Below the pieces are notes generated by a model. It saw nothing but the letters and a program-made list of their open reading frames with translations. It ran no database searches and was not told the origin of the DNA. A program made the translations under genes and the position numbers. Positions 8,220 to 29,987 of a DNA stretch of 32,000 nucleotides are shown one piece after another. The stretch comes from Wolbachia endosymbiont of Onchocerca ochengi (GTDB lineage Bacteria; Pseudomonadota; Alphaproteobacteria; Rickettsiales; Anaplasmataceae), in assembly GCF_000306885.1 (NCBI RefSeq), contig NC_018267.1, positions 150,001 through 182,000 on the forward strand, written 5' to 3'. Within the stretch, counting starts at the first letter, position 1. Every line of letters begins with the position of its first letter.

Positions 8220-8856
8220 TTTATATATAACTCTAGCTTATTAAAATATACAATCATTCATTTTAAAAAACAAGTTTTTTTGATATAAAGAAAATATAAG
8301 ATGATACACGGCACCAGAATTAGCGTTCATAATGTTACCTAAGTAGCTAACACTGGAAATCTAAAAAAAAGAAATATAGACTTCCAGCTTACATGTTGAA
8401 TGACGCTATCCGTTGTAAGAGCATAACTTCGTTCATAATTATATGGCTAACTATAAATATTTAGAAAATTTACTAAGCAGAAAAGAAAATAAAAGAAACC
8501 TTGTAGTAGCTAGTTGTTTAACATTCTACAAACTAGCTATTCTACACTATCTTAAATGACTTATAAATACGTTTTCAGCTTGAAATCTTAGAATCTTTCG
8601 AGATAAAAAATTAACAAAAACATGAGAGAAACAGATAGTGCAAAAATTAAATATAAGACACTAACTAAGTATACACTTTCGTCGTTTAATCTGCGCAGCT
8701 TAAAGACAACTAAATACTTTCATTACCATAAATGGGAAAATTGGCAAGGTTTGTTAAGCAGTTTTACGTTGGATTTGAATTCTTGAAGTCACACTATTTG
8801 TAAAGTGTAAATAACGAGAAAGGGGTGATAAAAAGTTTATATGCTCACGGCACTTC

Positions 8857-16270: not shown

Positions 16271-16864
16271 AGGAATATTTAACTACTATAATTACAATCA
16301 AATATAGGATATGCTGCTTCCTTATCAAGCAATAGCAACACTTGACAAATTTAATACTATAAGTACATGTAAGAACTAGTCAATACAAAGAAAGAAAGCA
16401 AAAACAAGGTTAGTATTGCTGTCACTTGGAAAAAAAGAAGGTATAATACCGTATATTGGACGCTAATCTTTCTGTAGGTGTATACTATTTAATTCTTTAA
16501 TAAGATTATTTATATCATCTACTAATTCCTAGAACTTGGTGATAATGTTTATGCTTATTTAAGATGATATGAAGGAAACAAAATTGAAAACCAAATTTTC
16601 CACATAAAAAAGAATGCTATCCGTTACCTGTAAGTACGAGCTTAATAAGAGTTAAAAAGTAAACATTTGCCAGATGCTTACAAAATGTCACTAAGGTACA
16701 ATAAAAAGAAAGGAAAAGAAACTTCCAAATAAAAAATAGGCAAGATAAAGGATTTTTCTAATTCACTAGAGTTTTTTAGGCAACCTTTCACATCTGACTA
16801 GAGAAAACATACAAGCATTAAACCGATAATATATACAATTTCACTGCAGTAATATCAACTATGG

Positions 16865-17132
16865 ATTAGATTTTAGATAAGCTATTGAAAATCCTAACTT
16901 TCTTGATTAAATCTAATCAAATTTAAAAACAGTAGTTTATTAAATGTTTCATACTACTAAGCTAGTAATACTCTTAAATTTTACTGAATTGACAAATATA
17001 GCTTTAAAACACCTACTGCTCAAGTAGACAGTATACTTTTTTTAACTTAAGCTTACTGCTAAAATAGCTTATAAAAAACTTCTTAGTTTACTAGATAAAC
17101 TCTCTATAAATAAATCAGGTTTAGCACAAATC
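16865..17132 (+). repeat. dispersed non-coding repeat, copy B (best-conserved core 16865-17037)
   Basis: See copy A. By eye the ~175-nt core is about 70-75% identical, and copy B lacks a block of about 90 nt that copy A has. Confidence 0.65.
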
Positions 17133-17659
17133 TACTCCACCGTTTCTTGAAAGACAAAGAGAAATCCACCCAATCTTTATTATATAAGACAGTTTATACA
17201 GACTTCTTCGTTAGCATACAGTATAAGCATCATCATATATAAAATAGTGTATAATGAGATACTTAATATAAGACTAAGCAAAATACTGAGAGGTGATAAT
17301 CATTTTGTATTTTACTGCATTTTTATCTTTTCCTCAGTAATTTCCCCAATTACTTTTAATTGTGCTATGGGGGAATGTAATGCACTCCAGTTTATACGTA
17401 TAAGATACAATTTAAGGTAATTACTGTTGTATTCAGTACTTTATACCATATTCTACAATACAAAAACAACACCTTAAAAGGTATAAGAAATAGTTCTATT
17501 TTATAATATAAAACCAAAAGATAAACTTAATGCTTCTAATTTCTCTTGTGTCTCTTTACATTGAAAAAATTTTCCTCCTGTTTCCTTAATATCAATTCTC
17601 ACATACTAATTTAATAGTAACTGAATATCAAGGATATTTAATTTTAATGGCTAGCTAAG

Positions 17660-20209
17660 TCAACTACCTCCTTCACCAATTACAGTATTAAATATTAGAT
17701 CTTCATCAAAACTCATTTTAGGACGCCAAATAGGACCATCCAAATGCACATCAACATAAATTGGACTACTACGACCTGGTAATATGAAGAAGAACCTCGA
17801 TAAAGAAATTAAAGCAAAGTTAGGTAAGGTTAAGTTAGAAGAGACAGATCCTGATGCTTGATCAATTTCAAATTGTAGACTAGTTGAACATACACCATTT
17901 CTAATGCTTGCTTTTCCGCTAACATTTTTAAAAACCGTACTACCATTATATATACCAACATGAGTAAGTGTGGAAATCCCAGATTTATTTTTACTGCTAA
18001 ATAAATCAGTGATGAAAGAATTAAAGTCCACATTAGCAAATTCTATTTCCTGTGCTTGCAAATTAACCTCTCCTGACAAAGTATTAGCCCAATTGTGAAA
18101 GCTTTTTCCTTGAGCTTTAATCTCACCATCTAAGTTTAGTTTACCACTTAAATTATCAATTCCAATAACCTGAGCAACCCTTTTAATATCTAAACCTACA
18201 ACAAAAAATTTTATATACATTAAGTTTAATCTTAAATAACCCTGAAAAGACACTTGTCCATATTTCAATGCATAACTTACTTTTTTAACAGTTATAGTAT
18301 TATTTATCACTACCGCATCCAAATTAAAGTCCTTCAAAACATCCTGTCCAGTATTAAGCTTTGTAACACTAATCTGCACATTTGCATCAAAATCTTCTTT
18401 GCCATTTAAGAAATTAAACTGTTTCCTTGACCATTGAACCTGATCTATCTTATTTCTCGAATCTTTTCTCACTTCTATTAAATTCGGTAATTTTAAAATA
18501 CCAGCATTAAATTTATCGCCAGTTATGCTTACATCTAACAAAGGTTTAATATATTTTTGATCCGCTAATATTTTTATATTACCAGTAACATTGAAATCTT
18601 CTCCAGATAACTTTATTTTACCTGTAACAAGCCTGCCCTTTTCTATCTTCAGTAAGAAACCTAAACCTTCAATTTTTGTACCGTTCAACGTGAAACCATT
18701 AACATTGATTTTTATATTTGCATCATACTTCAGATCTTTTAACCATTGCACTTTTGATAAACCATCCAGTAATGAATAATTATATTTATCTAAGTTGAGA
18801 TCGTGTACACTGAATCTACCACTAATTACATTATGCTTTTTTGTGTAGTTTACCTTAACTGACCCTCGCCAAAATTCTTTATCATTCAGCAACTTAATAT
18901 CTGAAATAGACAATATCCTGGGCGCAAAGTGTAACCTCGAACTCATTGTAAATTGATTTCTCTTGTTTTCTCTAATCTTTATAAAAGGAAAAAAACATGA
19001 AATGAACGACTCAAAATCATCTCCTTTTAGCAATAAATCACCATCAAACTCAGACAAGATAAGATTGTTTGAAACTTTCCCTGATAAACGAGCTACATTA
19101 TTAGCTCCAGGAAGCCGAAGAAGCGTATCAACTTTTATTTTGCCATCAGCAAATTTTAGCATAGTATGAAATTTATCCAATATTCTGTTTTGGTATTGAA
19201 TACTTGAAGCTTCTACATTGAAATCTAAATTCAAGTTCTTTGGTACAACCTCTCTTAAACATTCTAGAAGACCCTTCATACTTATTACTTTTCGTGAGCT
19301 GTTTTGTATAGAGTCTAAATCAACTTTACTAAAAGTAATATCAATATTAGTATAATTATTTTTTTTATCGTTTCGTACTGTACCACTAGCCTGTATGTTT
19401 TTAGAATTAATTTTTAAATCATTTAACGTGAACTCACTTTCATTAAGGTTAATATTAGATGACATCTCAACATTTTCACTAGGAACAACATAAGCAAGAA
19501 AGCCAAGACCGATAATTTTTGCTAAATCACTCATAAAATTAGAACCATTATCAATTGACAGCATCAATTTGCCTCGGAGGCCTTCTCGGTTTTTATCACC
19601 TGCAAACAGCAAATTTATAAAACTTGATTTGATATTAATATGTACATTCTTTTTTGTAATATCAGCCTTCCCCGAAAAATCATAATTATTATCATCTACC
19701 TTTGCTTTACCATAGAAATGTCCGTTCTTTTTAATAGCAATCTCTTTTATATTAACAATACTTCTATAATCAGCAAAGTCATTGTTTAAATCTATTTGGC
19801 TATCTTTCATTATTACATCAACCTTACCAGGTCTTTTATTTACGATACTAATAAAATCTTCTTTACTACCTTTTACACCAAACAATGTGACCAATTTCGG
19901 TTGTAACGAAAATAAAAATAATGATAGAAAAGATGGCCTTATTTCAATCCTATTTATGCTAACCGAATCTGACAATTTTTGTTTTTTATCGTTGTTATAC
20001 TGCACATACACGTTATAAATAGTGAGCTTCGGAGTAATTAGTGAAACTTCAATTTTTCCTCCAATATGGATTCTAGCATTAAATGTGTCTTCTAATTTTT
20101 GTACAATAAGTTCTTCATAGCTATTCCAATCTTTAAAAGATATAGCAACCTTCAGAAGGATCAATATTAAAGAAATTGATAATATTATGTATATAAGAAG
20201 TCTTCTCAT
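17660..20209 (-). CDS. AsmA-family (AsmA/TamB/YhdP-like) large envelope protein
   Basis: 849 aa. An N-terminal signal-anchor is followed by ...DWNSYEELIVQKLEDTFNARIHIGGKIEVSLITPKLTIYNVYV, which fits the AsmA N-domain pattern. The rest is long and beta-rich, and the C-terminus is ...PIYVDVHLDGPIWRPKMSFD. Confidence 0.7.
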   Translation of the reverse strand: MRRLLIYIILSISLILILLKVAISFKDWNSYEELIVQKLEDTFNARIHIGGKIEVSLITPKLTIYNVYVQYNNDKKQKLSDSVSINRIEIRPSFLSLFLFSLQPKLVTLFGVKGSKEDFISIVNKRPGKVDVIMKDSQIDLNNDFADYRSIVNIKEIAIKKNGHFYGKAKVDDNNYDFSGKADITKKNVHINIKSSFINLLFAGDKNREGLRGKLMLSIDNGSNFMSDLAKIIGLGFLAYVVPSENVEMSSNINLNESEFTLNDLKINSKNIQASGTVRNDKKNNYTNIDITFSKVDLDSIQNSSRKVISMKGLLECLREVVPKNLNLDFNVEASSIQYQNRILDKFHTMLKFADGKIKVDTLLRLPGANNVARLSGKVSNNLILSEFDGDLLLKGDDFESFISCFFPFIKIRENKRNQFTMSSRLHFAPRILSISDIKLLNDKEFWRGSVKVNYTKKHNVISGRFSVHDLNLDKYNYSLLDGLSKVQWLKDLKYDANIKINVNGFTLNGTKIEGLGFLLKIEKGRLVTGKIKLSGEDFNVTGNIKILADQKYIKPLLDVSITGDKFNAGILKLPNLIEVRKDSRNKIDQVQWSRKQFNFLNGKEDFDANVQISVTKLNTGQDVLKDFNLDAVVINNTITVKKVSYALKYGQVSFQGYLRLNLMYIKFFVVGLDIKRVAQVIGIDNLSGKLNLDGEIKAQGKSFHNWANTLSGEVNLQAQEIEFANVDFNSFITDLFSSKNKSGISTLTHVGIYNGSTVFKNVSGKASIRNGVCSTSLQFEIDQASGSVSSNLTLPNFALISLSRFFFILPGRSSPIYVDVHLDGPIWRPKMSFDEDLIFNTVIGEGGS

Positions 20210-20286
20210 AATTTCATATGCTTATATATTACCCATGAACATTAGAGTACCAAAATAAATAACAACACCTAAAGGTACTAAAACTG

Positions 20287-21274
20287 TCAAATGAATAATG
20301 CAAGCAAATACTCTATCAAAAGAGATAATCCTGCCAATAAGAAGCTAAGAATGTAAAGAGCTATCGACATAACTAAAGTTGCAACAATAACTCTTACAAC
20401 ATTTAATAATAGTACCTGGTTAATCTTATACATTTTACTTATCGTTAAATAATGAGAATTAATAAAATAGAATTTACCCAAGTGAAAATAAAAGTAACAA
20501 TAGCAATCCCTCTATTATAGGACATTGCATTTAGTATAAGACTTACAATAATTGTATCAACCCATAGACTTATCTAAATTACACAGTTGTTGATAGTTGC
20601 TAGTATTATATGCTTGAAAAACTACTTTACTGCATTACTCAACTTTACACTAAAAAAAGGTAGCCTTTGACTTATATGCGCCAAACACCATTAACAATAG
20701 TCACAGAATTCCTCTAATTAAAACAAAACTGCTATAGAAAGATTGTGAACCAATGTTTTTATGTAAGGCACAAATAAACTGATAATTAGGCAATGATTTA
20801 AAATCACAGATGCAATAGCTATCGAAGCAAAGTATTGTTTTATTTACAACATTCTCCCAATAAATAACGCAACTAAAATGAAAATTATTAAAGAATCATA
20901 ATTCTTGACAGAGTCACAGTAAAGGTAAGCTTACTTTAATTAAATTCAGAAAGTAAATATTTGAACCATATAAGAAAGTTTGCATGGTAAGGCAAAAAAT
21001 TACCAAAATAATAAACGTAAGAGGTATTATACTACTTACAAAATTAAATGCCTTTTTATTATCACATGATTCTGTTGAATATAATGTAGTACAAAAAAGG
21101 TAGCAAACGCTCCTTCTGCAAAAAATGCTCGAAATAGATTAGTAAAATGAAACGAAGAAAAAATATATCTGTAAAAGAAGTTGTACTAACAATTTGAGCA
21201 ACCGATACATTCCTTATTAAAGAGACTCTTGAAATAGCTGTAAAAAACCTAAATGTGAGAATATTTTCAAACAT
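20287..21274 (-). pseudogene. murJ: decayed lipid II flippase gene murJ/mviN
   Basis: The N-terminal fragment is FTAISRVSLIRNVSVAQIVSTTSFTDIFFLRF..., compare E. coli [31 protein letters not shown]. The internal fragment is FASIAIASVILN......FVPY, compare FSIPAFAPTLLN....FAAPY. The C-terminal fragment is LLLNVVRVIVATLVMSIAL...LLAG, compare FLLRLVVAVLVMSGVL...VLAG. The fragments are collinear but separated by stops and frameshifts. The relic is about 1.0 kb against about 1.5 kb for an intact gene. Confidence 0.7.
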
Positions 21275-21299
21275 TCCTATTTAGCACTACTTCAGACTG

Positions 21300-21816
21300 T
21301 ACTCAATGTCAATATAATTGACTGTAATGTCTATCTTAGTAAGACTAGCGATAATGAATTAAATGAAAAGAATAGTGCAAAAATAATAGCCATGATAAGC
21401 ATACTTTACACCATCGTTAAAATCTATATCTATTATTAAATGTAAACTTTAAAAGTTCAGTTAGCACAGACCTGATTCTGACTTTTTGATTAGCCTTTAA
21501 AACAATCAAACAATGGATAAAGACACAGAGAAGCATAAGAAATGCTTCAATGCTGCCGTCTACCTAACCAGGCTTTAGTAAAAATTCAAGTATGTTAAAA
21601 ATAAATGATATAATTAAACATGAAAGCGAAATATCAAAACCGAGAAATAAAAATACCAATAAAAATAAGTATCGGTAACTGAGTAAGAGCAAAACCTATA
21701 ATAAATACCACAAAAGGTGTAACACAGAGAGCTACATAACCAGTATTAGAAGTATTTCACTAAAAAAAATGCCACCTTGGCTTTATGTGAGCAAGAAAAC
21801 GTGAGAAAATTGCCAT
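21300..21816 (-). pseudogene. possible remnant of another membrane-protein gene (identity unresolved)
   Basis: ATG at 21816 gives MAIFSRFLAHIKPRWHFF then a stop. It is followed by hydrophobic stretches (GYVALCVTPFVVFIIGFALTQLPILIFIGIFISRF, MLIMAIIFALFFSFNSLSLVLL) broken by many stops. Confidence 0.25.
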
Positions 21817-22243
21817 ACAAGCCACAAAAAAACACAAGCCTACACACTATATAATAGTATATAATAACATTAATACAAAAACAGAAGATTATATTACATA
21901 CAAAACGCTAATTTACTTTATATTAAGTTAATGTTAACAGCATTAACAATCATTAAGGACACACAAAAGTGTAAGCTATACCATTCGATTTCAGCTTAAA
22001 TGAGCTACTGGTCCATTAATTATTGGTATTGTCCTTAAAAAAACAAGAAAAATACAAAGCATAAAGTTAAGTACCACATTCATCAATAAACATAAACGCT
22101 GAATTTATTAGAAACTCTAGAATTTTATATAATGAAACTACAATACAGCTCAAAATAAAAGAGTCTACTTAAATAGTCAATTGACTTTTTTTTGCTAATA
22201 TGCTAGAAGCTTTACAATTTTTGCACTTATGTGCTAAAAATTT

Positions 22244-22317
22244 GGCGGGTGTAGCTCAGTTGGTAGAGTGTCAGTTTGTGGTACTGAATGTCGCCAGTTC
22301 GATTCTGGTCACTCGCC
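22244..22317 (+). tRNA. tRNA-His (anticodon GTG) with encoded G-1 opposite C73
   Basis: Hand-folded cloverleaf. Acceptor is GCGGGTG/CACTCGC, D arm GCTC-AGTTGGTA-GAGT, and anticodon arm TCAGT-TTGTGGT-ACTGA with GTG at 22278-22280. The variable region is ATGTC and the T arm is GCCAG-TTCGATT-CTGGT. An extra 5' G sits at 22244. The 3' CCA is not fully encoded. Confidence 0.93.
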
Positions 22318-22447
22318 CAGTTAAATTTTCTACTTTATAAAAATAAAAGCATTCGATGTACTTTTATATATCTTTAAAGACCATTTGAAAACTTGATCTA
22401 ATTTACTAGTTAATTTTTAAAGCACATAAAACAACTTTGTAATGCTA

Positions 22448-22996
22448 TTAATTAATTAATCTAATGAAAGCCATGTTATTTCCTCGCAGTACTAAGTGTA
22501 TGTTTTTCGCTATCTTCTCTACTAAAAAGGTAACTTTATTAAAATTTAGAAATTTAGACAATACATAATCTGTTAGACTCCTTTGGTTATCGGGTCTACC
22601 TATTCCAAACCTTAGGCGCCAATAATCATCACTAATAAGATTATCTATAGATTTAAGACCATTATGTCCAGAAGAACTACCACCTTTCTTTATTTTTATT
22701 CTTCCAAGTTCTAAGTCGGCATCATCATGTATAACAATGATATTATCTGATGAAAATTTATAAAAATCCTGTACTCTTGCAACAGGAATACCTGAGTTAT
22801 TCATAAATGAGTAGGGCTTTAGCAACATAACCTTGTTTCCATTAATTATACCAGAGGTTATTAAATAATCATCTTTTTTAGAAAATGGCTGAAGGCTCCA
22901 ACACTTACAAACTGCATCAACAATGAGAAAACCAACATTGTGATAAGTCAGCTTGTATTGACTACCTGGATTACCGAGTCCAACTATTAAATACAC
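22448..22996 (-). CDS. pth: peptidyl-tRNA hydrolase
   Basis: YLIVGLGNPG..Y..T.HNVGF and HDD.DL..G..K.K.GG...GHNGLKSI are Pth signatures. The GTG start overlaps the rplY stop by 1 nt (TAGTG). Confidence 0.94.
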   Translation of the reverse strand: MYLIVGLGNPGSQYKLTYHNVGFLIVDAVCKCWSLQPFSKKDDYLITSGIINGNKVMLLKPYSFMNNSGIPVARVQDFYKFSSDNIIVIHDDADLELGRIKIKKGGSSSGHNGLKSIDNLISDDYWRLRFGIGRPDNQRSLTDYVLSKFLNFNKVTFLVEKIAKNIHLVLRGNNMAFIRLIN

Positions 22997-23607
22997 TATT
23001 CTCCTGTTTCTGTTTTAGATTCCTCAACATCACTATCAACAGTAGAAATTGTAACAACGGTAAAGTTTTCTTCCTCATGTGCTGCAAGCTTAACACCTTC
23101 TGGCAATTTTACATCACTTATATGTATAGACTGACCAATCATTTTATCAGATAAATCAACTTCTATAGCTTGAGGTATTCTATCTAGAGAACTTTTAACA
23201 GTGATAGAACGACATAAAATATTAAGTACCCCACCTAACTTGATTCCTGGAGATTTACTTTCATTCACAAACAATAAAGGTATATCTATTTTAACTTCGC
23301 CATCTTTATCAACAAATTGAAAATCAACATGCTGTATAGTATCCTTCACCATATGCCATTGAATACTACGAACAAGAGCATATTCTTTTTTACCTGAGAT
23401 ATTTAATTCTATCACATGTGCAGAAAGAGACCCTAATTTGTATTTCTTCGTGAATTCCTTTGTAGACAATGTCAAATTTACATTATCATGCCCTTTACCA
23501 TATATAACTGCAGGTATGTACCCTTTCTCTCTCAGAGAATACATTGCCTTTGTTTTTGTTACATCACGTAATTCTGCATTAATTGTTACTATTTCCTGTT
23601 GTGCCAT
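22996..23607 (-). CDS. rplY: 50S ribosomal protein L25 / general stress protein Ctc
   Basis: 203 aa. ...REKGYIPAVIYGKG..N..L......F and ...VRSIQWHMVKD.I.HVDF match long-form L25/Ctc. The C-terminal tail is acidic. Confidence 0.92.
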   Translation of the reverse strand: MAQQEIVTINAELRDVTKTKAMYSLREKGYIPAVIYGKGHDNVNLTLSTKEFTKKYKLGSLSAHVIELNISGKKEYALVRSIQWHMVKDTIQHVDFQFVDKDGEVKIDIPLLFVNESKSPGIKLGGVLNILCRSITVKSSLDRIPQAIEVDLSDKMIGQSIHISDVKLPEGVKLAAHEEENFTVVTISTVDSDVEESKTETGE

Positions 23608-24828: not shown

Positions 24829-25293
24829 ATGTCAACAAATTGGCTTCATAATTTGTTATTCGGTTCTAATGAATCGAAAATAGAAGCACTAAAAAAGGCT
24901 CAAAAAATTGATGCTAAGCAGTTTGAAGAAATATTCATTACATTAAAAGAAAAGATCGGCACTGAACAGTTTCAACTTATGCAAAATCACTTAAATGAAC
25001 TACAAGAAAAAGTAGAAACTCTCACAGAAACAGTAGTAAATCAAGAAAAAATAATGCTAACCTGTTGCATCGTAGCCAGCATTATTGCTTTAGCGGCAAT
25101 TAGTTTTATCTGCTTCTGTATCTATCAAGGAATAAAGAATGAAAAGGGGAAACAAAGAAGCTTATCTCAGAGTGCGCCAACCGAGAAACTGATTAACTTA
25201 CGTAAACCAAACCCAAACATGAAACTTAATGTAGATATTAGTAGCACTAAAAAACTACTGAAAGGTCGAGAATTAATGGCAATATATAAATAA
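24829..25293 (+). CDS. hypothetical coiled-coil / single-pass membrane protein (no family recognised)
   Basis: 154-aa ORF. A strong SD (AAGGGGG) lies 6 nt upstream of the ATG. About 70 N-terminal residues have a heptad-like pattern (LQEKVETLTETVVNQEK). One TM helix is present (IMLTCCIVASIIALAAISFICFCIY), followed by a basic C-terminal tail. Confidence 0.6.
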   Translation: MSTNWLHNLLFGSNESKIEALKKAQKIDAKQFEEIFITLKEKIGTEQFQLMQNHLNELQEKVETLTETVVNQEKIMLTCCIVASIIALAAISFICFCIYQGIKNEKGKQRSLSQSAPTEKLINLRKPNPNMKLNVDISSTKKLLKGRELMAIYK

Positions 25294-25374
25294 CACTTTT
25301 TCCTAAGAAGGTGTTACATACCCTGTAACACCTCGTACTTTAATGGAAAAGTACCCAATAAACTATTTTATTTT

Positions 25375-26520
25375 TTAATCATTTGTTCTCTTCTTTGTTA
25401 TCACAAGTCTTTTCTTCAGCACATTTTCAACTACAATACTAACTACCATAATTACAGACTCATCATGAACACTAAGCGATGTAATTAATGAACCATTCGC
25501 ACTAACAAAACAATTACTTAATATTCGTTTTATGTTTTTTCCTCCCATTACAGTTGCAAAAACATACAACACCTATATCACTTGCTTTTACTTTATGAAA
25601 TTCCCCACGATTACATTATCACCAATCATTGTACATTCATACTTAGTAAATGAGCCAATTCTAATACCGGACCCTATTTTTACTCAAGAATCAAAAAAAC
25701 TTATAGATAAATAATCAAAATTTATACTAATTTAAGTCTCAAAAAAACAGTCTCTGGAACAACAAGCATTACTCCTGAACCAATAAAGAATTTTCTTTAA
25801 CTTTCTTAAAAGTAAAACTCACCTTTTACAAGGTCACTTCTATCACTTATACTAATTGCTTCTTCCTCATCAACAGTAACATAACCGATATTTAAATTAC
25901 TCTTTATTGTAATGAAAATTGTATCAGTTAAATAATACTCATGAGTCAATTTATTACACTCTATTTTCCATCAAGTTAAGTAAATCTTTCATATGTGCAA
26001 CCATCATTCCAACACTCACAAAAAATTCTTCACTACTATTTTCGCCATTTTGTGCTTCTACGATTTCTCTCAAGAAATCATTCTCAACAACTAATCTACC
26101 ATACCTCTTATCGCTAGTTTTAAAACCAAAATAAACCAGAACCTTACCTTCTCTAAGCAACTAACCATTTCAGTTATCGTGCCACTTTTTATAAACGGAG
26201 TACCTCCATACTACACAATAACTATACTTGAACCTATAACTCTCTCAGGCCTCTTACCACAGTTCTGACCGCATCCCCTGTATCAACAAAAACATTAGTT
26301 CTTGTATAATTAACTGTACATCCTTAAAAAACCACAACCTTTTAATTAAAGATAAATCACCTACAATAGATATATATTCCAAGATTTAACCGTTTCGCAT
26401 TATAAGTAATATATTTGGCATGGAAAATTACCTATTTTATGTAGGACTTTAGACAAGTTTAAATTCATACACTTGTTCATACCCCGTGAGTATAACAAAT
26501 GCGTAAGTTTTGTTCTTCAC
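25375..26520 (-). pseudogene. glmU: decayed bifunctional GlmU (GlcNAc-1-P uridyltransferase / GlcN-1-P acetyltransferase) gene
   Basis: Collinear GlmU-like segments appear across three frames: AFVILTG, VQLIIQE then DTGDAVRTV, VVWRYSVY, KRYGRLVVENDFLREIVEAQNGE, HEYYLTD, SGVMLVVPETVFF and IGDNVIVGNFIK*K. A hexapeptide-repeat tail follows: SANGSLITSLSVHDESVIMVVSIVVENV..KRLVITKKR. There are many stops and frameshifts. The relic is about 1.15 kb against about 1.4 kb intact. Confidence 0.78.
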
Positions 26521-27564: not shown

Positions 27565-29987
27565 TCCGAAAATGCTAGCTTAAACCTTCATTATAGCAAA
27601 CTTACACAACACCAACAACTCAAAAAATTATCCTCATTTCGATTATTAATCTGCTGATTAATTATACTTTTTTATCTAATTTTATATTGAAAAACATACC
27701 GTACTACTATATTTAACAATAATATTAAACTAACGAAGAATACAAAGCAGATGATGATCTAAATTGTTTAAGGAGAAATATATAAAGACATAAGTAAAGC
27801 ATTCCATGATTAACTAATGGAAACCAGTACTACTTATTCAAGAAGCCTTATAAGCAACACACAGAAGTTTTCCATTTAAGCCAACAATATCGATGACAGC
27901 AGATCAAGGCATCCACGATACAATACTATTCAAATAAAACATTTAATCGACTTCTTTAAAATCTGCTTCTTCGAGGAAAAACTTTCATAGCTAACACAAA
28001 AGTACCAAAAGAAAGCAGTGAATTATATAACGACCACTATAAAACCGTGTAAGGATTCATTAGTAACGATCTACTCAAAATCCTTCTACGTAAATACTAA
28101 TTACACTATAAGTAAACACTAAAGACACTAACTTAGTAAGTTGCACCAAATTTAGCTATTCTTAAATTAAGAGCCAGAACATGTAGAAAAAACTGAAAGC
28201 AAATAGCAAAGTTAAGTTATAGCACAAGCAGAAAAAACTAAAAACAAAGAAAAACAGGATATAGTTCAAAAAGAAACCACATGAGATAAATAAATTGCAT
28301 CAATTAAAAATTCTTTTAGCTATAATAAAGCACAAGTTACATATCACCCAGCAATTATTGTAGCAATAATAAAAATGCTTCTTGGATTAGTTTTTTCTTA
28401 CTCACTAGACTTTCTTAATAAAACGTAGTCCTTCTTTTTACACCTACCGGAACTTTCTACATAAAAAAAGGCTTCGACTCGTCACTTAATATCTCAAAAC
28501 CAAAAACGTGCAAAGAATAATCAAGTAACCAGATCACACATAGAGTATATTAAGGCCAACAAAAAAAAATCAAGAAAGTAGACAGAAAAAGAAAGATAAT
28601 CTACTAAAATAAGCTAAAATTAATATCAGGTCAGCTACCGTAAATAATCTAACTGAGCACAAGAAAAAATTTTGATGAGACATTTACTAAAGTAGTCAGC
28701 AAATACCTGAAGACCAAGAAACATTTTGCAATACTATCAACTAAGAGTTTAACATTGTTTATTTTCAAAATAAACAATTACATGAAATATTAGAAATACT
28801 ACAACCAATTAGTAAGTCTTCTACTCCAAAAGAATATTTATAAAAGTAATTACATAGAAAAAAAAAGAGCGATTGCTTAAATTAAGCTCAGATATTCATA
28901 TACAACAATCTCTTCCACACCTAAAAACATTTTTCATAAAAATGGGAACTATGTACCAAACAAGCTGCAGATCCCTAAGCTGAACAAAGCTCTAGCAGCT
29001 AATACTATTTTCAAATCACTGTTTAAACTGTATTTTCCCCAAAAAAAACACTTCGTCTATTCTTGATAGCGTCCTTTATATCAATATTCTGCCTACAGGC
29101 ATTTGCTACTTGGAAAAGCATCAATCTTTAAAGGATCAGTGCCATCAGAAAAAAGAGAAATATTAGGTTAGCATTGAACATAAAGTTACTAATAACAATC
29201 ATACTATGTATTTTGATTCGGTTTATTTTATATATTCTAAATATTTGGTAAAATCTACCGAACAAATAAGCCAAAACAAGTTTACTTCATCCACTTAGAA
29301 AAATAGAAACAAGTTGTTTTAAAGAACTTCGTGTGATAAATAATTTCGTTTTTGCTATATGTTTAAAGGAATCATTACAGTATTGGAGCTATAATTAATA
29401 TTACCTTCTACTCCAACTCTGATCAAGTTTTCTACATTAAGGCACAAAACTTACCTTCTATATATAAAGGAGATCCAATAGCCTGTTCCAGTGTATGTTT
29501 AACTAATGTTAACAATCAATAATATATTCACAGCTCAAGCATCTCAAGAAACTATGAAAGTTTCTAATCTCAACACGTGAAAAGTAAGAGAAAATAAACC
29601 TAAAGCAAGCAACAATAAAATTAAGCGATAGGAGATTGATAACCACTTAGTTCAAGGTTATCTAGATAATAATAGTATAAATTTTAACAATTAGTAAAAA
29701 TTTAGGTTCCCATGAAATCAAGTTATCATGCCCAGAAGAATTATTAAATTCGTTGCAAAATAGTTTCCCTTACAGTAAACTCAATTATTACCAAGAAATT
29801 TACAGTAAACACTATTCTCTATAAATGGGAAAATATAACTTTACAGTATAATAAAGTAAATAATAGCTTAAACTTAGAAGTTAACATGATTACTCAATAT
29901 TTATATCAGCCGGCTCAGTATAAATACAATTAATTTTACAACCTTAGTATTTACAACTATTATACTTGCGAAGCACAAATATATAGT

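Follow-up and report, generated by a model that had tools for sequence, protein, structure and literature searches.

A predicted murJ (mviN) pseudogene upstream of asmA in the Wolbachia endosymbiont of Onchocerca ochengi

The window, by which we mean the whole 32,000-nucleotide stretch of DNA that was analysed, has a G+C content of about 30%, and from position 8661 to position 29208 it is 99.56% identical at the DNA level to the wOv chromosome HG810405. It carries an intact asmA-family gene whose product is 99.4% identical to its wOv counterpart and whose strong homologues are all from Wolbachia. Since this product is also 100% identical to wOo_01830, the stretch itself is from the Wolbachia strain wOo, which belongs to supergroup C and lives in a filarial nematode of cattle, Onchocerca ochengi; it is not from an Ehrlichia-like organism. 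An earlier interpretation made from the letters of the stretch (referred to here as the sequence-only reading) had named Wolbachia as an outside comparator that retains parts of the peptidoglycan pathway, a role that it cannot have here. The genes and gene relics of the region are as follows.

17660..20209, minus strand: asmA-family gene, intact, 849 aa, the conserved downstream partner of murJ; 100% identical to wOo_01830 (CCF78005.1)
20206..21274, minus strand: murJ/mviN pseudogene, entire relic; based on tblastn, DNA alignment (with wDimm murJ, WOLB0982 and wLsig murJ), lesions, Pfam on a repaired translation, and shuffles
21327..22147, minus strand: older relic of a DsbD_TM/CcdA-like membrane protein gene; tblastn matches in several frames, E 2.6e-11 to 2e-7
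22245..22318, plus strand: tRNA-His (GTG), whose place between pth and murJ is conserved at every filarial Wolbachia locus examined
22448..22996, minus strand: pth, upstream syntenic anchor
22996..23607, minus strand: rplY (L25/Ctc), upstream syntenic anchor
25366..25847, minus strand: glmU pseudogene, C-terminal half in two frames; tblastn with the wDimm GlmU C-terminus, E=9.2e-29

The spacer between pth and asmA is 2.24 kb long and consists of the tRNA-His gene and two gene relics of different ages. An Rfam scan of the stretch returned tRNA-His alone, and thus no structured RNA within the murJ relic. The DsbD_TM/CcdA-like gene is intact at the same position in the Wolbachia of Cantharis cryptica (locus L008) and in wStur (L029), where the ORF measures 298-299 codons from stop to stop and matches Pfam PF02683 with E=2.6e-12. 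We found that the approximately 0.97 kb between tRNA-His and the murJ relic are 69% identical between wOo and wDimm, with no ORF in either strain or in wLsig. Because neither wDimm nor wLsig has a DsbD_TM/CcdA-like ORF, the loss of that gene predates the loss of murJ. The sequence-only reading had supposed that much of the unusually long spacer DNA of this region is degraded gene material. For one spacer, that between pth and asmA, the long "intergenic" DNA is indeed made of gene remains, and the supposition holds to that extent. On the other side of asmA, 1.39 kb (16271-17659) between rpoD and the asmA 3' end contain no ORF; the matching gap in wDimm is about 1.2 kb (L001 8553-9737).

A decayed glmU gene had been proposed to lie 5 kb from the murJ relic. 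Its C-terminal half is there, running from 25847 to 25366 in two frames; Pfam on the X-masked frames of the putative relic gave nothing significant. For the N-terminal half we have a possible fragment, SKVLHKIGNFP near 26450, recognised by eye only, and the relic possibly extends up to about 26510. At the corresponding place wOv has only small unannotated ORFs (L030 3051-3837). Between the glmU relic and rplY lies a 154-aa ORF (24829-25293, plus strand) that matches no Pfam family and is conserved as a called gene in wOv (L030 3919-4383) and wDimm (L001 626-1087).

At its start the murJ relic has kept an ATG (21274-21272); its last codon is the ancestral TGA, in overlap with the ATG of asmA (ATGA, 20206-20209). 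We aligned the DNA of the wOo stretch with murJ of wDimm, murJ of wLsig and the corresponding region of WOLB0982, an uncultured Wolbachia MAG (CACRCM010000008.1). Against the intact 495-codon wDimm murJ the relic showed 86% DNA identity (930/1082). The wDimm protein aligns end to end with the solved MurJ structures 7waw and 6cc4 (E about 1e-68 to 1e-66) and this reference is therefore a true MurJ. When intact wDimm MurJ (495 aa) was used as the query, tblastn returned six collinear minus-strand matches in three frames, extending from 21274 to 20228, with reported E-values of 2.4e-38, 1.1e-23, 7.5e-14 and 2.4e-9. The six matches are given below by position and by residues of wDimm MurJ.

21274..21149, minus strand: tblastn match to aa 2-44, 67% identity
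21212..20517, minus strand: tblastn match to aa 29-255, E=2.4e-38
21084..20653, minus strand: tblastn match to aa 66-209
20552..20469, minus strand: tblastn match to aa 384-411
20454..20320, minus strand: tblastn match to aa 416-460, 76% identity
20371..20228, minus strand: tblastn match to aa 449-490

The best of these matches scored 144 bits. The region was also shuffled 200 times, in 100 cases by mononucleotide and in 100 by triplet; these controls averaged about 16 bits, and the highest reached 23.5. The similarity of the relic to MurJ is far beyond chance. Membrane-protein-like ORFs are common in AT-rich sequence and the two ORFs that had been listed for this region have no MurJ match in Pfam when taken singly (only a sub-threshold SecE was returned), but with these scores, an E-value of 2e-38 and 86% DNA identity to the orthologue at the orthologous position, a chance resemblance of hydrophobic peptides can be dismissed.

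The MurJ signal in Pfam emerges only once the frames are stitched. The stitched N-terminus matched PF03023 MurJ with E=8.7e-6 and 25 bits, below the cut-off of 27.4, and TIGR01695 with E=1.4e-6 and 27.3 bits against a cut-off of 235.55. In X-masked translations, the middle frame covered positions 17-234 of the Pfam MurJ profile (E=5.8e-5) and frame 1 reached 22.3 bits, again below 27.4; NCBIfam gave no match on X-masked frame 1. An alignment-guided repaired translation scored 91.3 bits on PF03023 (E=7e-26), well above the cut-off of 27.4, and was 76% identical to wDimm MurJ over 342 aa. Intact wDimm MurJ scores 319.5 bits on the same profile. The relic is a descendant of the MurJ/MviN family (PF03023, TIGR01695; MOP superfamily) and not a functional member of it.

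The relic can be divided into three parts and one deletion junction.

21165..21274, minus strand: N-terminal piece in the original frame, about codons 1-37, reading SRVS-LIRNVSVAQIVSTTSFTDI; from six-frame translation, alignment, and TIGR01695/Pfam on the stitched N-terminus
20517..21164, minus strand: central part, MurJ aa about 38-254, including NLFRAFFAEGAF and FASIAIASVILN...FVPY (20831..20763); from tblastn, alignment and lesions
20516/20515, minus strand: junction of a 420-bp deletion that removed MurJ aa 255-395 including the YYADR motif; in wOo and wOv, absent in WOLB0982
20206..20515, minus strand: C-terminal part, MurJ aa about 396-495, including VVRVIVATLVMSIAL; from tblastn, alignment and lesions

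Lesions were scored relative to the reading register of wDimm murJ. The total came to 11 frame-breaking small indels, one 3-bp deletion, one 420-bp deletion and 5 in-register stops. In the N-terminal piece a 3-bp deletion near 21221 is specific to the wOo stretch, and the piece is closed by a 1-nt deletion near 21164 that is common to WOLB0982. In the six-frame translation we read SRVSLIRNVSVAQIVSTTSFTDIFF and then a frameshift, after which the following frame continues with NLFRAFFAEGAFATFFV, the most conserved N-terminal motif of MurJ. The central part has indels near 21088 (+2), 20978 (-5), 20952 (+1), 20889 (-1), 20730 (+5) and 20659 (-2), and the in-register stops fall at ancestral codons 115, 146, 192, 219 and 235. 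The C-terminal part has insertions of +2 near 20457, +2 near 20325 and +1 near 20227, all of which are common to WOLB0982.

This anatomy agrees in large part with the sequence-only reading, which had proposed a murJ/mviN fossil beside the AsmA-like gene from three hydrophobic pieces. All three are MurJ fragments on the minus strand, in the correct order and in three frames, and the frameshift-tolerant alignment that it had suggested is collinear on one strand with E-values down to 2.4e-38. Its estimate of about 1.0 kb where about 1.5 kb is expected was right (1,069 bp versus 1,488 bp for intact murJ), and the shortfall is almost wholly the one 420-bp deletion. It had ended the relic at 20287, short of the overlapping stop codon at 20206, and had overlooked the best-conserved piece, NLFRAFFAEGAF, in the next frame. 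It had also taken ORF 21062..21274 as the N-terminus of MurJ; this is correct for the first 37 or so codons, and the remainder is in a frame shifted by the 1-nt deletion near 21164.

No single uninterrupted frame of about 495 codons is left, the longest ORF being 70 aa, and what remains cannot encode a 14-helix transporter of the MOP family. Residues essential in the cavity of E. coli MurJ are R18, R24, R52 and R270. In the conceptual translation of the relic one can still make out the N-terminal SR..IR..TD..FR motifs. The YYADR segment, which we take to be the site of the R270 equivalent, falls within the deleted 420-bp block, and the essential cavity residues are thus not all retained. With its ATG and roughly the first 37 codons preserved, ORF 21062..21274 of wOo could in principle yield a hydrophobic peptide of 70 aa. 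The start codon of WOLB0982 is ATA, and this ORF is therefore not conserved.

Tracts of T or A are the site of several lesions (those near 21164 and 20659 are examples), and one such tract (alignment columns 653-655) differs in length between wOo and WOLB0982. One could therefore argue that murJ is really intact and that its frameshifts and stops were introduced by errors of sequencing or assembly, the genome being AT-rich and full of homopolymers. We regard this as extremely improbable. Identical disabling lesions recur in the independent assemblies of wOv (HG810405) and WOLB0982, as in a unitary pseudogene, and on a second MAG contig (L031) the gene calls between pth and asmA do not include murJ. 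Furthermore, five of the lesions are stops that arose by base substitution, a 420-bp block is missing and the substitution pattern is neutral (see below). Taken together, and as judged from sequence comparison, 21274..20206 on the minus strand is almost certainly a non-functional pseudogene of murJ (mviN), the lipid II flippase gene, in Wolbachia wOo of O. ochengi. We met nothing that contradicts this pseudogene status.

The order of genes in wDimm (CP046578) is glmU ... rplY - pth - (tRNA-His, on the opposite strand) - murJ (495 aa, PF03023) - asmA - rpoD. The relic occupies the orthologous position: it adjoins asmA on its upstream side and has pth/tRNA-His on its other side, in the same order as in wDimm and wLsig. 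At the shared locus pth - tRNA-His - murJ - asmA the wDimm gene is open over 495 codons whereas the wOo copy is broken. The murJ stop overlaps the asmA start in filarial strains, and the adjacency of murJ and asmA is present in arthropod Wolbachia strains too. The wDimm murJ has been reported as a transcribed/expressed gene (Luck et al. 2014, PMC4289336).

We scanned species-representative genomes and judged by tblastn the status of murJ upstream of asmA at 25 Wolbachia loci. A full-length, single-frame murJ was found in 20 of the 25 species-level loci. The other five are wPpe, with a match to aa 2-462; wTis, with one frameshift; one contig that is too short; and WOLB0982 and wCtub, in which murJ is degraded. 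WOLB0982 is the closest relative of wOo in this collection. In wTis (Wolbachia of Tettigetta isshikii; L025 4539-5998) murJ lies in two frames with a single frameshift near aa 103. Either the gene was inactivated very recently or the assembly, a draft of low coverage, is wrong at this point. As a separate observation, a large number of the MurJ entries from Wolbachia measure only 391-398 aa, their first residue corresponding to about residue 98-105 in wDimm MurJ; one of these entries was seen on 361 contigs. They include the "integral membrane protein MviN" of wMelPop and W. pipientis, and lack the N-terminal segment with the conserved FAEGAF motif. Such short entries could reflect start-codon miscalling or real N-terminal disruption.

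The relic might instead be a redundant, discarded copy if wOo had a second functional murJ, or an analogous flippase gene, elsewhere. The part of the genome that we inspected directly is 32 kb of about 958 kb, which leaves room for such a gene, but we think its existence very improbable. Every Wolbachia locus examined has murJ upstream of asmA and a second copy was seen in none of those loci; no Onchocerca Wolbachia appears among the named entries of the best 120 homologues of wDimm MurJ; and in a published table murJ is missing from 2 of 12 supergroup B/C/D genomes (PMC10591338).

The relics of related strains give a relative date for the loss of murJ. The wOv relic is 99.44% identical to that of wOo, with 6 mismatches and no gaps. 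The WOLB0982 relic is 94.9% identical to that of wOo and has 7 indels and 3 stops in common with it. Unlike wOo and wOv, WOLB0982 has kept most of the 420-bp block and has lesions of its own: its start codon is ATA, 70 bp are deleted and there are additional stops. The lesions common to wOo, wOv and WOLB0982 show that murJ died in the ancestor of the Onchocerca Wolbachia, after the split from wDimm. On this comparison the inactivation is placed after the wDimm split and before wOo/wOv separated from WOLB0982, and the 420-bp deletion is a later event on the wOo/wOv branch. The relic differs from wDimm murJ at 13.9% of positions, slightly above the expectation for a still-constrained gene scaled from asmA. 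As a rough inference, murJ was probably inactivated only shortly before wOo and WOLB0982 separated.

The substitutions themselves are consistent with neutral decay. Between wOo and WOLB0982 they number 17/15/20 at ancestral codon positions 1/2/3 (p=0.68 for uniformity, with only 52 substitutions), whereas the functional murJ genes of wDimm and wLsig differ by 79/49/151 at these positions (p=1.5e-13). The absence of a codon-position bias in the relic is the signature of neutral drift after the loss of purifying selection. Together with synteny and the frameshift-tolerant alignment, it bears out the murJ fossil that had been proposed beside asmA. The course of events is almost certainly as follows. 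The ancestral state was a 495-codon murJ directly upstream of asmA, as in other Wolbachia. In the common ancestor of wOo, wOv and WOLB0982 frameshifts and stops put the gene out of action, after which it drifted neutrally, and on the wOo/wOv branch a further 420 bp (aa 255-395) were lost later.

The explanation that survives best beside simple decay is compatible with a pseudogene: the coding function would be dead and the DNA kept as the promoter or 5' leader of asmA. On this view asmA would originally have been co-transcribed with murJ and translationally coupled to it via the ATGA overlap. We consider the explanation unlikely, though less so than the alternatives above. Around the start of asmA every base of the ancestral murJ-asmA junction has been kept, asmA is intact, there is no other obvious upstream gene on the asmA strand before pth, and more than 1 kb of relic persists. 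However, a scan of 20000-22500 for promoter and terminator patterns found no excess over shuffles (14 promoter-pattern sites versus 15.0 expected). Moreover, divergence between wOo and WOLB0982 is 5.1% in the relic and 6.4% in the adjacent non-coding spacer, and thus gives no sign of constraint. Returning to the pseudogene, the relic would be without function beyond, perhaps, that of transcribed leader DNA for asmA, and the wOo/wOv/WOLB0982 lineage would live without MurJ.

Decay of murJ is also seen in another supergroup. In wCtub, the Wolbachia of Cruorifilaria tuberocauda (supergroup J), tblastn found scattered MurJ fragments upstream of asmA (L026 4936-5981), corresponding to aa 114-155, 281-333 and 356-490 in three frames. 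This decay is an event independent of that in the Onchocerca clade. The fragments agree with the published absence of MurJ from supergroup J (wCtub, wDcau), in which murJ is lost and the cytoplasmic lipid II genes, rodA and pbp2 are kept (Harpring & Cox 2023, PMC10591338). Supergroup J thus resembles the wOo clade in having lost murJ and retained the cytoplasmic lipid II genes, rodA and pbp2, but differs from it in that the loss of murJ is accompanied by the loss of ftsZ.

Parts of this picture are already in the published record. The table of Harpring & Cox gives murJ in 83% of 12 supergroup B/C/D genomes, a list that includes wOo, wOv and wDimm, without discussing the figure (PMC10591338). 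In all likelihood wOo and wOv are the two from which it is missing. The same source gives ftsW in 8% and rodA in 100% of the B/C/D genomes; it discusses the loss of MurJ and FtsW for supergroup J only, and asks whether RodA might be a lipid II flippase (PMC10591338). Darby et al. (2012, PMC3514676) described the wOo genome as highly degraded, with 88 lost genes, and reported pseudogenes of argD and the riboflavin pathway, which like the murJ relic reflect reductive decay in the same genome. They stated that the peptidoglycan gene suite of wOo equals that of wBm except for the pseudogenised argD, and murJ, mviN, glmU and a flippase all go unmentioned in their main text. Read literally, the 2012 statement conflicts with the loss of murJ, and the relic qualifies it. 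In the literature on Wolbachia murJ, mviN, flippase and glmU we came across no paper that explicitly describes how the Onchocerca clade lost murJ. The absence of murJ is nevertheless implicit in published tables and probably in database annotation. To this the present analysis adds an account of each lesion and a date for the loss in relation to wDimm, WOLB0982 and wOv, both of them small additions.

The murJ relic is an ordinary pseudogene in a genome known as highly degraded, and what modest importance it has comes from the identity of the lost gene, whose product is generally accepted as the lipid II flippase. Wolbachia cell division is considered to depend on lipid II synthesis, which is being pursued as a target against filarial disease. 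In both O. ochengi and the river-blindness worm O. volvulus the symbionts would have lacked MurJ from a time before the two strains parted; published gene tables show them to lack FtsW as well, and a glmU relic lies nearby. The Onchocerca clade would then stand beside supergroup J as a second, independent case for studying how lipid II gets across the membrane, or if it still has to. The clade (wOo, wOv, WOLB0982) may keep MurA-G and MraY without MurJ, FtsW and GlmU, and for this combination we put forward two readings, which even taken jointly are tentative. If RodA or some unrecognised transporter does the flipping of lipid II, and the worm supplies UDP-GlcNAc, then the clade and the loss in supergroup J would together form a natural experiment on a SEDS protein substituting for MurJ. 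If instead the river-blindness symbiont is in the course of losing its entire lipid II pathway, lipid II would be weakened as a drug target in onchocerciasis.
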